A DNA stretch of 64,000 bases from an uncultured Planctomycetota bacterium (lineage in GTDB: Bacteria > Planctomycetota > Planctomycetia > Isosphaerales > Isosphaeraceae), in NCBI GenBank assembly GCA_963737655.1, contig CAVTTN010000002.1, positions 4,832,001 to 4,896,000 of the forward strand, given 5' to 3'. Shown piece after piece: positions 13,516 through 19,026 of the stretch. Position 1 is the stretch's first letter, and each line of letters begins with the position of its first letter. Under the pieces are notes generated by a model. It ran no database searches. It was not told where the DNA came from and saw nothing but the letters and a program-made list of their open reading frames with translations. The translations under genes and the position numbers were made by a program.

Positions 13516-14544
13516 TCAGTGACCGACCATCTCCAGCCACTTTTCGCAGTCAATCGCCGCCGAGCAGCCCGAGCCGGCCGCCGTGATCGCCTGCCGATAG
13601 TGCGTGTCCACCACGTCCCCGCAGGCGAACACCCCCTCGATGTTCGTCGCCGTCCCGTAATTCGGCAGGTCCGAACTCTTCAACGGGCCGGACCCCGAAT
13701 CGTCCCACGCCAGCGCATTCCTCGTCAAAAGGTAGCCGCTGGGCGTCATCGCGAGCTGCCCCTCGAACACCTTCGTGTTCGGGACGTGGCCGATCGCCAG
13801 GAACAGGCCGTCGATCGGCAAGTCGCGGGTCGAGCCGTCCACGGTGGACTTCAGCGTCAGCCCCTTGACGACCTTGTGAGGCTCCAGGTCGCCGTGGACC
13901 GCGTCCACCACCGAATTCCAGGCGAATTCCAGCTTGGGGTTCTTCATCGCCCGTTCCTGCATGATCTTCGAGGCGCGGAGCGAGTCTCGGCGATGGATCA
14001 ACGTCACCTTGCTGGCATAGCGGGTGAGGAACGTGGCCTCCTCGACGGCCGAATCCCCCCCGCCGACCACCGCGATCGGCCGGTTCTTGTAGAAGGCCCC
14101 GTCGCAGGTGGCGCAGGTGCTCACCCCTTCGCCCCGGAACGGCCGCTCCGAGGGCACGTCGTCCAGCCACCGGGCCGAGGCGCCGGTGGCCACGATCACG
14201 GCGTCGGCCGTGTACTCGGCATGCTCGCCCGAGGGGTCGCCGGAGGGGTCGGTCGTGGTCGTCAGGCGGAACGGCCTCTTCGACAGGTCGGCGGCGATCA
14301 CGGTCTCGAACCGGGCGTCGGCCCCGAACCGGACGGCCTGCTTCTCCATCCGCTCCATGAGCTCGGGGCCGATGATCCCCTCGGGGAACCCGGGGAAGTT
14401 ATCGACCTCGGTCGTCCAGGTCAGTTGCCCGCCCGGCTCCCGGCCCTTGAAGACCAAAGGACGCAGGTTGGCCCGGGCGGCATAAAGGGCGGCGGTGTAC
14501 CCGGCGGAACCGGACCCGATGATGATCACGGAAAAATGCGGCAT
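13516..14544 (-). CDS. trxB: Thioredoxin-disulfide reductase
   Basis: GSGSAG, CATCDG, GGGDSAVEEA, RQAITAAGSG. Confidence 0.96.
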   Translation of the reverse strand: MPHFSVIIIGSGSAGYTAALYAARANLRPLVFKGREPGGQLTWTTEVDNFPGFPEGIIGPELMERMEKQAVRFGADARFETVIAADLSKRPFRLTTTTDPSGDPSGEHAEYTADAVIVATGASARWLDDVPSERPFRGEGVSTCATCDGAFYKNRPIAVVGGGDSAVEEATFLTRYASKVTLIHRRDSLRASKIMQERAMKNPKLEFAWNSVVDAVHGDLEPHKVVKGLTLKSTVDGSTRDLPIDGLFLAIGHVPNTKVFEGQLAMTPSGYLLTRNALAWDDSGSGPLKSSDLPNYGTATNIEGVFACGDVVDTHYRQAITAAGSGCSAAIDCEKWLEMVGH

Positions 14545-15019
14545 CGTTCCCTCAAGGCCAGGGGAGGAAGGCGGACGACCCATCCCGCCGGGCGGCACCC
14601 ATTATTCTACGGCCGAGGGGAAAATACCACGAGTCGCCAACCCAAGAACCTCGCCCCGGGTCCGTACCCGGCGAGTCACCAGCGGGACGGGCCCCGGAGT
14701 TCGATCCCATCTCTCCCTCGAACCCCGGTCGCCCCGCGGACTAACATGAAAAGATCCACAATTTTGATTTCGAAGGCGGGAACGGCGGCCCAAAGGTCCA
14801 GGCCAAGGCCACTCGCATTAGTTATCGGGGCGCGACGACCATTAATCATACACGTACGCATATTGGGGTTTTTCTCTTTGAATTCCCGGGCGGAATCCGG
14901 GATCACGTCGAAGAGCAGGGACGGGGCGGCGTCTCAATCGACGAATCGAGGAGGAGCTGGATCGAAAAGCCTTGCGGAGGGTGTTTCCCGCCGGCAAAAT
15001 AAAATCCGCCAGGGATTAC

Positions 15020-15049
15020 GCGTCATTTCCGACGTCTACTCCACGTTAG
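15020..15049 (+). other. Putative attI-like integron site; GTTAGGC core interrupted by IS110
   Basis: Removing the IS restores CCACGTTAGGCGGCGGAGG...ATG; no RYYYAAC partner ~100 bp upstream, so it is not a full attC. Confidence 0.55.
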
Positions 15050-15079
15050 TCGCCATGCCGCGAGTGGCACCCTGAGACG

Positions 15080-15108
15080 ATGAAAATGGGCCGCGACCGA
15101 GGTAGACT
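15080..15108 (+). promoter_or_regulatory. Putative sigma70 promoter for the IS110 ncRNA/transposase
   Basis: ATGAAA-17 nt-TAGACT. Confidence 0.45.
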
Positions 15109-15114
15109 CGGGGT

Positions 15115-15250
15115 GCCGCACGCACGTCGGGTCCCGGCCGTCGTCGCCTGGTGCCGCGAGCCCGCGTGTTAGTCTGGCCCGGACATCGCGCCGCATCCGA
15201 GACTGTCGCCCCCGCCCGGGGAGCACGCAGAACAGAGTGTTCTTCCACGC
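15115..15250 (+). ncRNA. Putative IS110 bridge RNA (target-binding and donor-binding loops); ends approximate
   Basis: Guide-like segments TCGTCGCCT (15141-15149) and GTTAG (15168-15172) match the target; GACTGT (15201-15206) and CAGAACAG (15228-15235) match the donor junction; each pair brackets a small hairpin. Confidence 0.75.
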
Positions 15251-15287
15251 GATGTCCCCCGGCGTGCGTCGGCGGGGGGGGTTCGCC

Positions 15288-16526
15288 ATGCAGGTGCTCC
15301 ATCGCTGTTGCGCGGGGTTGGACATCCACAAGGATACCGTCGTCGCCTGCGTCCGCCGCGTCGATGACACGGGCAAGGCCCGCTCGCAAGTACGGACCTT
15401 CGGGACCATGACCGGGGCCTTGATCGAGCTGGCTGATCGGCTGGCCGAGCAGGGCGTCGTCCACGTCGCGATGGAGTCGACCGGCGTGTACTGGAAGCCG
15501 GTCTGGCACCTGCTGGAGGGGCGGTTCGAGCCGATGCTGGTCAACGCCCAGCACATCAAGCAGGTGCCGGGCCGCAAGACCGACGTCAAGGATTGCCAGT
15601 GGATCGCCGAGTTGCTCCAGCACGGCCTGCTCAAGGCCAGCTTCGTGCCGCCGGAGCCGATCCGCGAGCTGCGCGACCTGACGAGGCAGCGGGCGCAGAT
15701 CGTCGCCGAGCGGGGCTCGGTCGCCAACCGCATCCAGGGGGTGCTGGAGGACGCCAACATCAAGCTCGGCTCGGTGGCCACCGACGTGCTGGGCGACTCG
15801 GGTCGCGCCATGTTGCGGGCGTTGATCGAGGGCCAGGACGACCCGGAGGCCCCGGCGGAATTGGCCAAGGGGCGGCTGCGGGCCAAGATCCCGGCGCTGC
15901 GGCTGGCGCTTCGCGGGAAGGTGACGGAGCACCACCGCTTCCTGCTGCGGCTCCTGCTGGACCACTACGAGGCGCCGGAGGCCCTGATCGGCCGACTGGG
16001 GGAGCGGATCGACCGGGTGCTGGCGCCGTACGCCGAGGCGGTGGAGCGGCTGGAGACGATCCCCGGGGTCGGCCGCCGGGTCGCCGAGATCGTCGTCGCG
16101 GAGCTGGGCGTGGAGATGGGGCAGTTCCCGACGGCTCGCCACCTGGCGAGCTGGGCCGGGATGTGCCCCGGGAACAACGAGAGCGCCGGCAAGCGCCGCA
16201 GCGGCAAGACGACCAAGGGGAGCCGCTGGCTACGGACGGCCCTGATCCAGGCGGCGCACGCGGCGGGCCGGAGCAAGGCGACGTATCTGGGGTCGCAGTA
16301 CCGTCGGCTGGCATCGCGGCGCGGGGCGAAGCGAGCGGCGGTGGCGGTGGGCCATACGCTGCCGGGGATCATCTACGAAGTCCTGGGCCGGGGGACGACC
16401 TACGAGGATCTAGGCCCCTGCTACCTGGAGCGGTTGGAGCCCGAGCGATTGACCCGGCAACCGGTCAGGCGCTTGGAACGGCTCGGCCACAAGGTTACAT
16501 TGGAACCCAACGAGGCGGCCGCGTAG
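15288..16526 (+). CDS. IS110 family transposase / bridge recombinase (DEDD RuvC-like plus Tnp20 domain)
   Basis: GLDIHK, MESTGVYW, KTDVKD, TIPGVG, ASWAGMCPGNNESAGK. Confidence 0.96.
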   Translation: MQVLHRCCAGLDIHKDTVVACVRRVDDTGKARSQVRTFGTMTGALIELADRLAEQGVVHVAMESTGVYWKPVWHLLEGRFEPMLVNAQHIKQVPGRKTDVKDCQWIAELLQHGLLKASFVPPEPIRELRDLTRQRAQIVAERGSVANRIQGVLEDANIKLGSVATDVLGDSGRAMLRALIEGQDDPEAPAELAKGRLRAKIPALRLALRGKVTEHHRFLLRLLLDHYEAPEALIGRLGERIDRVLAPYAEAVERLETIPGVGRRVAEIVVAELGVEMGQFPTARHLASWAGMCPGNNESAGKRRSGKTTKGSRWLRTALIQAAHAAGRSKATYLGSQYRRLASRRGAKRAAVAVGHTLPGIIYEVLGRGTTYEDLGPCYLERLEPERLTRQPVRRLERLGHKVTLEPNEAAA

Positions 16527-16562
16527 GGCGCATTTTCAGAACAGGCGGCGGAGGCGATCTCG

Positions 16563-17111
16563 ATGAAGTTATCCTTCGTCCTTGAATCTATTGCCGTCGT
16601 CTCCGTCGGCCTCGGCCTGGCGCGATGGCACATCCAAGATCCGGTTTACGCCGAAGGCTACGCGGATTCCGGGGGGGCCGAGTGGCTCAGGCAGGTAGGC
16701 GACGGTTTCTTCGCGGGGGTCGCCGTCGCCGGGTTCCTCGGGCTAATGGTCGAGGTCGCTGCACGGCGGTCTCCCCGACCCTGGGGCCTGGGCCGATGGG
16801 CCTGGTCGGTTGTCGGCCTCTTCGTCGTCTCGCGGCATGCCTTGGGCGTGGTATTCGACGCGATCGTGCATTGGTACATGGGGATGATGAAGGAGTTCGC
16901 CGCAGATCTCCTCCCGCGTCTTCGCGCCAATCTGTGCCATTGGCTGCTCGCTATCGCACCTTATCTCATCATTGCGGTTTGGACGACGCGTTGGGTGTCG
17001 GGACCGAAGGCCGGCCGCGCCGATGGACGGGAGTGGGCCGGCCGGATCTTTGGGATCCTCATCATCGTGACGATGGTTGTCATTGATTGCCTCGCTACAG
17101 CCGGGTTTTGA
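16563..17111 (+). CDS. Integron cassette 1: multi-TM membrane protein
   Basis: GGAGG RBS; about 5 hydrophobic helices; lower GC3; followed by attC. Confidence 0.8.
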   Translation: MKLSFVLESIAVVSVGLGLARWHIQDPVYAEGYADSGGAEWLRQVGDGFFAGVAVAGFLGLMVEVAARRSPRPWGLGRWAWSVVGLFVVSRHALGVVFDAIVHWYMGMMKEFAADLLPRLRANLCHWLLAIAPYLIIAVWTTRWVSGPKAGRADGREWAGRIFGILIIVTMVVIDCLATAGF

Positions 17112-17122
17112 TCATATGTGCC

Positions 17123-17222
17123 GCCTAACCTTGCGCTGCAGCGGACCCCGCACCGCCACGGTATCTTTGGTATCATCAACATCAACTCGGCGGTGCGTGT
17201 CCGCTGAGCTTGGTTGTTAGGC
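17123..17222 (+). other. Integron attC site 1 (100 bp)
   Basis: GCCTAAC...CTGCAGCGGAC...GTCCGCTGAG...GTTAGGC; imperfect palindrome with extrahelical bases. Confidence 0.9.
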
Positions 17223-17233
17223 CGAGGGGAAGC

Positions 17234-17746
17234 ATGCCCGAGCCAACCCGACCGAACGCCGTTTGCCGACTACTGGAAGCCGCTTACGGGCTGACCATCG
17301 AGCGGGTGTCGGCGCTGCCGGACGGGGACGCGGAGCGGATCGCCGCCTGGCGAGTCGCGGAGCGGGAGTTCGAGAACGCGGCCAAGGACTTCATTACGAT
17401 CGCGGCGACCACGGATTTGATCCCGGCCGGAGAGGAGCGCCTCCGAGTGGCGCTCATCGCCGCCGTCCAGACCCTGTGGGCGCGGCAGTGGACGACCGCC
17501 GCGACTGGAACGGACGCCGAGTTCGAGACGCTCCGCCGGGGGCAGAAACCCTGGGTGTTTCAACTGCTGGCCCTGCTCAGCGCGACGCGCCGAGCCGAGT
17601 CTGAGACGGACGTCGGGAGGTGGTTCATGCTGCACGGAGTCTCATACCCCAACCGCTACCGCGAGCCGCGTCACCAGGAATTGTTCGAGGTCCTCGTGCG
17701 GCTGGCGCGGGAGGAGCTATCAGCGGCGGCCGAGATCCGGGCCTAA
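17234..17746 (+). CDS. Integron cassette 2: hypothetical protein
   Basis: Starts 11 nt after attC1; its TAA stop lies inside the GCCTAAC of attC2, a classic cassette layout. Confidence 0.8.
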   Translation: MPEPTRPNAVCRLLEAAYGLTIERVSALPDGDAERIAAWRVAEREFENAAKDFITIAATTDLIPAGEERLRVALIAAVQTLWARQWTTAATGTDAEFETLRRGQKPWVFQLLALLSATRRAESETDVGRWFMLHGVSYPNRYREPRHQELFEVLVRLAREELSAAAEIRA

Positions 17747-17840
17747 CCTCGCGCTGCAGCGGACCCGGCCCGCCGCGACGCTTTCTGGTAACACGGATGC
17801 CACTCTCGGCGGGCCGGGCCGCTGAGCTTCGGCGTTAGGC
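17741..17840 (+). other. Integron attC site 2 (100 bp)
   Basis: GCCTAACCTCGCGCTGCAGCGGACCCGGCCCGCCG...CGGCGGGCCGGGCCGCTGAGCTTCGGCGTTAGGC. Confidence 0.9.
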
Positions 17841-17908
17841 GGCGATAGCGGGGGTTGGCCTTGCCGCGGGTTTCCGTTCTGGATGCAGCGAAAACGTGGA
17901 GAAGATCG

Positions 17909-18289
17909 ATGCCAATTCCAGAAAGCATAGGTGCCTTTGCCATCGTTCCTAGCAACGATCTGCCGGCCGCGATTCCGTTCTGGGAGCGTTTGGGTTTCGC
18001 TCGGACGGGTGGTGACAACGCGTACATAATCATGACCGGCTGGGGGTGCGAAGTGCATCTCACCCAAGCCGGCCCGGACGCCTGGCGGGTTCCGGAAGCA
18101 CACAATCCGTTCGGCGTATTCATCCGCACCCCGGACGTTGACGCCATTGCGGCACGCGTCGATGACCTGATCATCCGACCTGGCGGAGTCCTTCGTCACC
18201 GAGAGTGGGGACTTTATGAGGTCGGAATCTGTGGGCCGGACGGCATGCTCGTGCGTATCGGCTGGCCATCTAAACTGATAAAAGCGTAG
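17909..18289 (+). CDS. Integron cassette 3: VOC / glyoxalase-bleomycin resistance family protein
   Basis: AIPFWERLGF, TPDVDA, REWGLYEVGICGPDGMLVRIG. Confidence 0.85.
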   Translation: MPIPESIGAFAIVPSNDLPAAIPFWERLGFARTGGDNAYIIMTGWGCEVHLTQAGPDAWRVPEAHNPFGVFIRTPDVDAIAARVDDLIIRPGGVLRHREWGLYEVGICGPDGMLVRIGWPSKLIKA

Positions 18290-18691: not shown

Positions 18692-18791
18692 GGTTAACCT
18701 CGCGCTGCAGAGGACCCCGCACCGCCGCGGCGCCCACCGTGCTATTATCGCCGTCTCGGCGGTGCGAGTCCGCCGAGCTTGGTCGTTCGAG
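18692..18791 (+). other. Integron attC site 3 (100 bp, degenerate ends)
   Basis: GGTTAACCTCGCGCTGCAGAGGACCCCGCACCGCCG...CGGCGGTGCGAGTCCGCCGAGCTTGGTCGTTCGAG; homologous to attC1. Confidence 0.8.
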
Positions 18792-19026
18792 GATTTTTGC
18801 CGTCGGGCGATCCTACCGAATTGAGCCCCGGGGGCGTCGGGGGTACGATGGCCGTCGAGCGACGGGTTTTCCGAGGCGGACGGACCGCGAGGGGTCCGGG
18901 GCTTCGGTGCGACGCCGGGGGACGATCGCCGGGCGGCCCGATCGCCCCGGCCCCCGGCCCGGCGAGGCCCGTCCCGCCTTCGGCCCGCGCCTCTCGCCTC
19001 GACGTTCGACCTGGGGACCGGGTTTC

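Follow-up and report, generated by a model that had tools for sequence, protein, structure and literature searches.

A long-transposase IS110-family element at an attI-like site in a planctomycetal genome, with a predicted upstream bridge RNA aimed at the integron core

Introduction

RNA-guided recombination by insertion sequences (IS) of the IS110 and IS1111 groups was published in 2024. Here we describe an IS110-family element in a 64,000-nucleotide (nt) stretch of DNA, hereafter the window, from an uncultured Planctomycetota bacterium of the Isosphaeraceae; the window is the interval G000:C2:4832001-4896000, where G000 denotes its own genome (7.63 Mb, GCA_963737655.1) and C2 the contig CAVTTN010000002.1. 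The element is very probably an intact IS110-family IS with a long transposase and a long left end, which recombines under the guidance of a left-end bridge RNA programmed to the integron core.

What is said here of the described systems is limited to the text of the papers cited. In IS621, the left end gives rise to the RNA and the right end of the element serves as the left donor; the T of the CT core is nearly invariant, and non-CT cores are functional at lower efficiency (PMC11208160, PMC11208158). In the seekRNAs of IS1111 elements, the segment that pairs with the top strand lies 5' of the one that pairs with the bottom strand, and the order is reversed in the IS110-type ISEc21 (Siddiquee et al., PMC11187229). 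Transposases are 330-350 amino acids (aa) long in IS1111 and 315-330 aa in the IS621 branch (PMC11187229). Targeting of attC is already known for the IS1111-attC group, comprising ISPa21, ISPst6, ISKpn4, and ISPa25 (PMC11187229, PMC3001079, PMC11616780), and these elements lie near the 5' end of attC in antisense orientation (PMC3001079). Together, IS621, ISCro4, ISPpu10, ISEc21, and several IS1111 elements represent two wirings among these published systems. Our comparison with IS621 rests on such published descriptions, not on the IS621 sequence.

Results

The element and its ends

The 412-aa product of the element (P0001) has the DEDD (RuvC-like) N-terminal domain and the Tnp C-terminal domain of the IS110 family (PF01548, E 9.5e-30, residues 26-173 of the longer open reading frame; PF02371, E 1.1e-22), and matches the NCBIfam model NF033542, "IS110 family RNA-guided transposase", at 287 bits (cut-off 140) over profile positions 1-342 of 343. 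The closest named transposase found belongs to the ISArsp3 family, a name taken from the annotation of plasmid NC_008538.1, and is 48.7% identical over residues 1-407. The non-coding ends are of very different length, with 238 nt on the left and 18 nt on the right.

The ends are fixed by other copies in the same genome. The only full copy is that of the window, and a truncated second copy, a 3' fragment at C2:286889-287601 (L002), is 98.6% identical over 714 nt and has the same right flank as in the window, GCGGCGGAGG. In addition, three mini-elements of ~110 bp retain just the first ~45 and the last ~17 bases of the element (left part 95%, 93%, and 87.5% identical). These copies set the junctions at GTTAG/TCGCCATG ... 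CAGAACAG/GCGG, where a slash marks the junction and the first bases are TCGCC, with an AG common to the left flank (15048-49) and the right end (16543-44). Because the mini-elements have neither the RNA nor the gene, they would need a full copy in trans.

Both ends hold conserved structures. In relatives, the left-end hairpin is kept with compensatory changes, and TGAAAAT and ATTTTCA of a subterminal inverted repeat are kept as well. Downstream of the gene, the window and 66 of 78 relatives have the motif TTTTC N5 NN, in which NN is mostly AG. The inverted repeat GATGAAAATGGGCC (15079-92) is identical to the reverse complement of 16527-40 at 12 of 14 positions (10 of 12 for 16527-38), and its placement is asymmetric, at distances of 29 nt (left end) and 6 nt (right end). 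The left module is the part that the mini-elements retain.

A predicted bridge RNA whose guides covary with DNA

The last 8 bases of the element, CAGAACAG, recur identically within its own left end, and relatives show that this is the rule. We searched one genome per species and found 589 relatives among 608 candidate stretches, of which the best 80 were kept, giving 78 loci with genome labels in Planctomycetota, Actinomycetota, Chloroflexota, Acidobacteriota, Bacillota, and others; 12 of the 78, which lack the right-end motif TTTTC N5 NN, were dropped. Among loci with at least 200 nt upstream, the last 7 bases of the element recur exactly in its own left end in 60 of 66, compared with 63 of 4156 mismatched pairings. 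The copy sits at the same place, 50-160 nt before the start codon, and there are 31 different 7-mers.

We aligned 37 of 44 distinct anchored left ends with MAFFT (alignment A3; L011, L015, L034, L045, L053, L056, and L071 were omitted). Two regular-expression parsers for the guides selected incorrect motifs at many loci and were superseded by this alignment. A single architecture emerges from A3, with an outer helix, a target loop, and a donor loop, and each loop has the form 5' strand, UG(G/U)YGC, hairpin, GAGC(C/A)CG, 3' strand. Standard pairs fill 78.6% of the cells of this structure, compared with 68.5% in shuffled alignments (0 of 500 reach the observed value) and 38-46% when the structure is slid by 1-3 columns. 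Changes on both sides occur in 24 of 28 pairs, and the paired share is 98.6% in the target-loop stem and 88.6% in the donor-loop stem. In the well-aligned helices G:U combinations outnumber A:C (36 vs. 5), which indicates that the RNA is read from the + (transposase) strand.

The guides within these loops follow the DNA. On the 3' donor strand, the right-end word comes directly after GAGCACG, while the 3' target strand consists of six bases, AG, and two further bases directly after GAGCCCG. This 10-mer after GAGCCCG was found upstream, abutting the first base of the element, with at most 2 mismatches in 29 of 34 loci, compared with 38 of 1062 mismatched pairings, and with at most 1 mismatch in 16 of 34 compared with 2 of 1062 (L023, L051, and L066 were dropped for their short upstream sequence). 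The two final bases, the handshake bases, are identical to those with which the element begins in 17 of the 22 loci where the junction was located without using them (46 of 462 in mismatched pairings), and in the window UC corresponds to TC. The 5' guide makes at least 7 of 9 pairs with the right flank in 11 of 36 loci, compared with 104 of 1258 (the means are 5.9 and 4.8, respectively), and the pairs frequently form a stretch of 4-8 beside the core; in the window all nine positions pair, two of them as G:U. Furthermore, in nine same-genome multi-copy sets, the flanks share the guide-specified word alone (3-14 bases) and then diverge.

In the window, the target guides read GTGTTAG/GCGRCGR. Relatives mostly aim at other words than the integron core. 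Many of them (L009, L011, L012, L013, L008, L025, L029, L030, L063) aim at right-end-like words (TTTTC N5 AG), and some are found head to tail; for example, L009 lies directly after its own right end, and elsewhere an L011-type right end is followed by an L009-type left end. GTTAGGC is likewise restored by the flanks of a Brocadiaceae relative (L015, 64% aa identity; guide at L015:1207-1230), in which the target guide is GGGUUAG.

A previous sequence-only reading of the window had bounded the element by the two AG dinucleotides and placed a two-loop bridge RNA in its left end, with guides at 15141-49, 15168-72 (GUUAG), and 15228-35. The bounds agree with the truncated copy and the three mini-elements, the coordinates and letters of the guides are confirmed, and the predicted RNA is supported by the end lengths, the compensatory pairs, the strand bias, and the guide covariation. 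That reading also asked whether guides covary with targets in homologs, and they do so in the 60 of 66 and 29 of 34 loci and in the nine multi-copy sets. Parts of its structure did not survive alignment A3. The outer GUCC and GGAC closing helix did not prove to be conserved, as GGAC is part of the stem of the donor loop (15181-90/15248-57). Only the window has the CGCG-AGCC-CGCG hairpin. As to GACUGU (15201-06), proposed as a donor guide, UGUYGC is an invariant motif, and just CU and 0-2 further bases can pair. Folding had been suggested as a check; the single-sequence fold was uninformative (z -0.15), and in the comparative alignment 24 of 28 pairs change on both sides.

The recombination may then proceed as follows. 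A bridge RNA of ~140 nt from the left end would offer one loop to the target and another to the donor. In the target loop, UCGUCGCCU on the 5' side would pair with the top strand right of the crossover (AG GCGGCGG), and GUGUUAG on the 3' side with the bottom strand left of the crossover (YRYGTT AG). The handshake UC after GUGUUAG would match the two bases with which the element begins, and CAGAACAG, on the 3' side of the donor loop, the right end of the element and the core. GTGTTAG/GCGRCGR is the conserved core of attI and attC in this genome, hence both the element and the guide-less mini-elements would land there. We infer that the RNA is produced and bound by the transposase, and that the element may still be mobile.

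The insertion site is an integron-like site

The window copy occupies an attI-like site that heads an array of three cassettes, and the insertion point falls between GTTAG and GC. Over 130 bases, the left flank of the element shows homology to a repeat present ten times in the genome, one copy of which lies directly beside intI, the sole integron integrase gene (C2:6777135-6778073, minus strand; TIGR02249, 474.6 bits, cut-off 265). This gene is 1.93 Mb away, none is found in the neighbourhood of the window, and the window's attI-like copy has no intI of its own; the gene upstream of the element (13516-14598, minus strand) encodes a pyridine-nucleotide disulphide oxidoreductase, not an integrase. 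There are thus ten attI-like copies for a single integrase gene, and seven of the ten head an attC array. They lie at C2 near 283784, 851073, 1121517, 1672875, 1969631, 4846971 (window 14971-15049), 5876250, 5881628, 5884870, and 6778244. Three of them (~5884790-5884845, ~6778150-6778215, and ~1121530-1121590) contain a perfect palindrome of ~50 bases, of the GGATTATACGTG...CACGTATAATCC type, which is absent from the copy in the window and from that at C2:5876250.

To the right of the element, 17123-17222 and 17741-17840 have the defining features of attC, with the inverse cores RYYYAAC ... GTTRRRY on either side of an imperfect palindrome able to fold when single-stranded, and their bottom strands fold with z -4.76 and z -4.47, respectively, with R-box/L-box stems. 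The cassette open reading frames 16563-17111 and 17210-17746 have no Pfam family, and these two and 17855-18289 have no NCBIfam family.

Uninterrupted sites in the genome read CATGTTAG/GCGG, and three uninterrupted attI-like copies end in ...TCTACTTCATGTTAG/GCGG, which means that excision would restore GTTAGGC. We take the integrase crossover point in integron sites to be G/TT, and the insertion between GTTAG and GC would then lie 3 bases from it. The genome holds 76 occurrences of a 22-base motif from the 5' arm of attC, grouped into 13 clusters, and GTTAGGCGG occurs 73 times, with 67 of these within 1.5 kb of ten multi-site attC clusters that make up 1.2% of the genome. Of the mini-elements, m1 is at the same point of another attI-like copy and m2 is at the GTTAG of an attC, while the truncated copy is within an eight-site array. 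The sequence-only reading had claimed that excision restores a GTTRRRY core and that the element targets the integron crossover site. The uninterrupted sites support the former, and the attI homology, the attC sites, the positions of m1 and m2, and the distribution of GTTAGGCGG support the latter. It had also called for a look at other copies, which have common ends throughout; their sites are in attI-like or attC contexts for m1, m2, and the truncated copy, and m3 is outside any recognised array.

Around these copies, we made some further observations. The mini-elements are at C2:1121472, 4298507, and 689550, all on the minus strand (L003, L004), and their 35-base middle is unrelated to the element. 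The truncated copy (L002:1400-1500) adjoins four tandem units of a 17-18-base, CCCCTTTTCGGCCCCAC-like repeat. At C2:1680931-1681317, within a nine-site array (C2:1673484-1681647), there is a fragment 44% identical to residues 1-135 of P0001.

Evidence for and against a guide RNA and an integron link

Several results weigh against an RNA-guided element programmed to the integron core, and two alternatives were weighed beside it. The first is that the guide-like matches are DNA-level features without a guide RNA, such as transposase-binding copies of the ends within the element, or matches that arose by chance in GC-rich DNA. A search of Rfam 15 over 14500-17500 at E<=10 gave three chance-level matches and none on the left end. 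The single-sequence minimum-free-energy fold of 15050-15290 is no better than shuffles (z -0.15), a measure that is uninformative in GC-rich DNA. The single sequencing run that a search gave, a soil metatranscriptome with 9% of the words, covers within 14900-16700 parts of the transposase gene alone, in fragments that are just 90-99% alike and thus come from relatives; nothing in this run fell on the left end, for which contigs cannot show absence. A scan of 14850-15350 for sigma-70-like promoters and for terminators was negative, and across the circle junction, read by eye, no -35/-10 pair spaced by 16-18 nt was seen. The 5' donor strand (15193-15203) does not track the first bases of the element, contrary to the IS621 scheme, and instead repeats a left-end word on the same strand, as a DNA repeat might. 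As for the guides themselves, 5 of the 34 left-flank words were not found at up to 2 mismatches, the signal between the 5' guide and the right flank is modest across relatives, and the 3' donor-strand reading in A3 is circular because its loci were picked by the 7-mer match, which leaves 60 of 66 as the unbiased count.

DNA-level features would, on the other hand, have to account for a 3' target guide that covaries with DNA outside the element (29 of 34 vs. 38 of 1062, and the nine multi-copy sets), for helices between the guides that stay paired via two-sided changes with an excess of G:U over A:C that fits + strand RNA only, and for a protein that matches a family model named for RNA-guided transposases (NF033542). 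We therefore regard this alternative as very improbable.

The second alternative is that the link to integrons is incidental, in that a frequent short GC-rich word is targeted and the window holds a fossil copy without bearing on integron function. There is a single intact copy while ~70 matching sites stand empty, suggesting that the activity of the element is low or past. In addition, m3 is outside any recognised array, with the left flank GATTGG, and most relatives target other words. It is also by homology that the attI-like copy of the window is taken to be a putative working attI. An incidental link is nevertheless very improbable, since GTTAGGCGG is not generally frequent, 67 of its 73 occurrences being in or near arrays; since the window copy, m1, m2, and the truncated copy are all in attI-like or attC contexts; since the Brocadiaceae relative with the guide GGGUUAG also restores GTTAGGC; and since an unrelated six-copy element, located in attC sites, has CAGGUUAG at the corresponding point of its putative RNA. 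An RNA-guided element programmed to the integron core thus remains the explanation that we favour.

A second element aimed at the same word

This unrelated element, which we call IS-B, was found with P0001 by tblastn. It is ~1800 bp long, with 34% aa identity to P0001 and a left end of 288 nt, and all six of its copies lie inside cassette arrays, antisense, at the 5' end of attC. In its own sense, the flanks read GAGGTTA/A ... GGGGAG/GCGGC, with the core AA at the left junction and AG at the right. By eye, its left end reads GGCC-GUCAUCUCCC-UGGUGC ... GCCCG-CAGGUUAG-CA-UGGCC, where CAGGUUAG is at the 3' target-guide position, and CGGGGAG matches the right end of IS-B. As IS-B both carries CAGGUUAG at the guide position and sits in attC, two unrelated elements aim at one word.

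Guides fit the DNA strand opposite to the transposase sense

The left end can be read by the IS621 rule in the transposase sense, and for 29 loci the result is at chance level: the 5' target strand shares 3.1 of 9 identities with the left flank and core, and the 3' strand 1.6 of 7 with the reverse complement of core and right flank. Furthermore, the donor loop carries the right-end word on its 3' side rather than on the 5' side. When the DNA is read on the other strand, the IS621 scheme accommodates the target guides, the handshake bases, and the right-end donor guide; the 5' donor strand agrees with it in neither reading. In the transposase sense, the core of the window copy is AG, and relatives have AG, AA, or AC, with an invariant A that pairs with the T of NT; there is no IS621-type CT core in this sense. 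A CT core opposite to the transposase sense had been claimed for this element from the sequence, and this is supported, but as a property of the whole subfamily rather than of this element. It could be argued that this is ordinary IS621 wiring in the transposase sense, with AG merely taking the place of CT, given that non-CT cores work in IS621 with less efficiency (PMC11208160, PMC11208158). The chance-level identities, the right-end word on the 3' side, and the invariant core A, which mirrors the invariant T of CT on the other strand only, make this scarcely credible.

Several features agree with the IS110 group, namely the RNA in a long left end, the short right end, the compensatory two-loop stems, and the handshake bases 3' of the target guide. 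Other features recall IS1111, and so it may be asked whether the element is a member of the known IS1111-attC group (ISPa21, ISPst6, ISKpn4, ISPa25), with a seekRNA downstream of the gene. Both have integron sites as targets, the top-strand-pairing segment lies 5' as in IS1111 seekRNAs (PMC11187229), and a subterminal inverted repeat (TGAAAATG.GCC; 7-17 bp in IS1111) is present. By BLASTP, P0001 is nearer to the IS1111-type transposase L095 (E 8e-22; 338 aa, with a short left end, a long right end, and an 11-bp inverted repeat) than to that of ISEc21 (E 0.016). For ISEc21 itself (L094, coordinates from PMC11187229), several short matches compete when its wiring is looked at, and the empty-site reconstruction is one base off. 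The non-coding region and guides, however, are all upstream, with a right end of 18 nt instead of the long right end and short left end of IS1111; the transposase has 412 aa instead of 330-350 aa (PMC11187229); and the window copy is at an attI-like 3' core in array sense, unlike the antisense position at the attC 5' end described for the IS1111-attC group (PMC3001079), a position that IS-B does occupy. Membership in that group is extremely improbable. The subfamily instead combines the guide order of IS1111 with the RNA position of IS110, as far as the published text describes these.

What does not fit the IS621 scheme on either strand is the 5' side of the donor loop. Here, GCAUCCGAGAC is a same-strand repeat of GCACCCTGAGAC (15067-78), the word flanked by the terminal hairpin and the inverted repeat. 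Other loci likewise have a word of their own in both places, for example ACCCGAAAC in L007, ACCTGGAAC in L029, and CACCACCGA in L039, and an exact common word of at least 6 bases between donor strand and left end is found in 15 of 34 loci compared with 71 of 988 mismatched pairings. No third segment complementary to the repeated word was found at a constant place inside each element. The mini-elements keep exactly the piece of the left end that holds it. The simplest reading is that the RNA contacts the bottom strand ~20 bases inside the left end.

A wiring distinct from the two published ones is a possibility that we put forward tentatively, at somewhat less than even weight. It would belong to a widespread subfamily of ~400-415 aa transposases, between the IS621 and IS1111 types, and two unrelated lineages in one genome would have been independently programmed to GTTAGGCGG, perhaps to hit attI-like sites and both ends of attC. 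Its features, if this is right, would be the upstream RNA, the reading of the opposite strand, the long 3' guides, and an extra donor contact beside a conserved DNA hairpin.

Table 1. Position of the element, its predicted RNA and guides, its target site, and neighbouring cassettes (window coordinates, except for IS-B)
Feature	Position	Strand	Remarks
IS110-family insertion sequence	15050..16544	+	1495 bp including right-hand AG; ends fixed by other copies; Pfam and NCBIfam matches
Left terminal module	15050..15092	+	4 bases, CATG with hairpin 15056-59/15066-69, word GCACCCTGAGAC 15067-78, inverted repeat GATGAAAATGGGCC 15079-92
Predicted bridge RNA	15125..15264	+	Outer helix 15125-31/15258-64; pair counts of alignment A3
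Target-loop closing stem of predicted RNA	15136-39/15176-79	+	A3
5' target guide UCGUCGCCU	15141..15149	+	Putatively pairs with top strand AG+GCGGCGG right of insertion point
3' target guide GUGUUAG, then handshake UC	15166..15174	+	Letters equal left flank and core; UC equals first two bases of element
Donor-loop closing stem of predicted RNA	15181-90/15248-57	+	A3
5' strand of donor loop, GCAUCCGAGAC then U	15193..15204	+	Ends in CU (15203-04); repeats subterminal left-end word
Inner hairpin of predicted RNA	15208-13/15219-24	+	A3
3' donor guide CAGAACAG	15228..15235	+	Last 8 bases of element including core
Transposase/recombinase gene, 412 aa, P0001	15288..16526	+	PF01548, PF02371, and NF033542 matches
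Right end	16527..16544	+	Inverted-repeat partner GGCGCATTTTCA 16527-38; terminal word CAGAACAG 16537-44
attI-like sequence, left part of target site	14920..15047	+	Homologous to C2 ~6778091-6778284 beside intI and to further copies
Left half of target, CGTTAG ending in shared AG core	15044..15049	+	Empty sites; GTTAG also adjoins m1 and m2
Right half of target GCGGCGGAG, also start of cassette 1 with ribosome-binding site	16545..16553	+	Same flank at truncated copy L002; similar cassette starts elsewhere
Gene cassette 1	16545..17222	+	Open reading frame 16563-17111, no family; attC 17123-17222 (GCCTAAC ... GTTAGGC)
Gene cassette 2	17223..17840	+	attC 17741-17840 (GCCTAAC ... GTTAGGC 17834-40)
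Third attC-like site, degenerate outer cores (GGTTAAC ... GTTCGAG)	18693..18792	+	Weak fold, z -1.59
IS-B copies	C2:288470-289660, 1675822-1677012, 1973370-1974560, 4671742-4672932, 6779105-6780295, 6784870-6786060	antisense to arrays	Partly in L002 and L085

Discussion

RNA-guided recombination by IS110 and IS1111 elements and attC targeting by the IS1111-attC group are known already, and what is unusual here, by the published text, is the reversed orientation combined with an upstream RNA. If true, a large natural subfamily with an upstream RNA, DNA read on the other strand, and a different hold on the left end would widen the design rules for bridge recombinases, and its wiring would bear on the relationship between the IS110 and IS1111 groups. 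That two unrelated RNA-guided elements would meet on one 9-base word suggests that guides are easily retargeted in nature. For the integron, the element separates an attI-like site from its cassettes, and should therefore affect cassette capture and expression; IS1111 elements are suspected of similarly freezing clinical arrays (PMC11616780). In the literature searched, we found no account of this wiring or of an upstream-RNA IS110 element at attI or attC, on which figures and supplements (Fig. 6d and Extended Data Fig. 10c of PMC11208160) may bear.

The closest described systems are IS621 and ISPpu10 (PMC11208160, PMC11208158, bioRxiv 10.64898/2026.03.19.712850). As their text describes them, they share with the present element a recombinase with DEDD and Tnp domains, a guide RNA in a long left end upstream of the gene (here predicted), two internal loops for target and donor, and a two-base core with one invariant base; the 5' sides of the loops end in CU and the 3' sides in AG and two handshake bases. 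In contrast to these systems, target and donor are read here on the strand opposite to the RNA and transposase genes, such that the 3' side of the target loop specifies the flank adjacent to the left end, and the 3' side of the donor loop specifies the right end. It is these 3' guides that covary strongly, and the word matched by the 5' donor strand is subterminal rather than terminal. The present transposase is also longer than those of the IS621 branch (412 vs. 315-330 aa; PMC11187229), and no junction promoter was recognised, the junction having been read by eye.

With the IS1111-attC elements, the likeness is that of RNA-guided DEDD elements homing into integron sites, with the same order of segments and subterminal inverted repeats. 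They differ from the present element, according to their published descriptions, in that the RNA is here predicted upstream of the gene and not downstream, the transposase is longer, and the window copy is at an attI-like core in array sense, not antisense near the 5' end of attC. IS-B occupies that same antisense position at the 5' end of attC, but with its putative RNA upstream.

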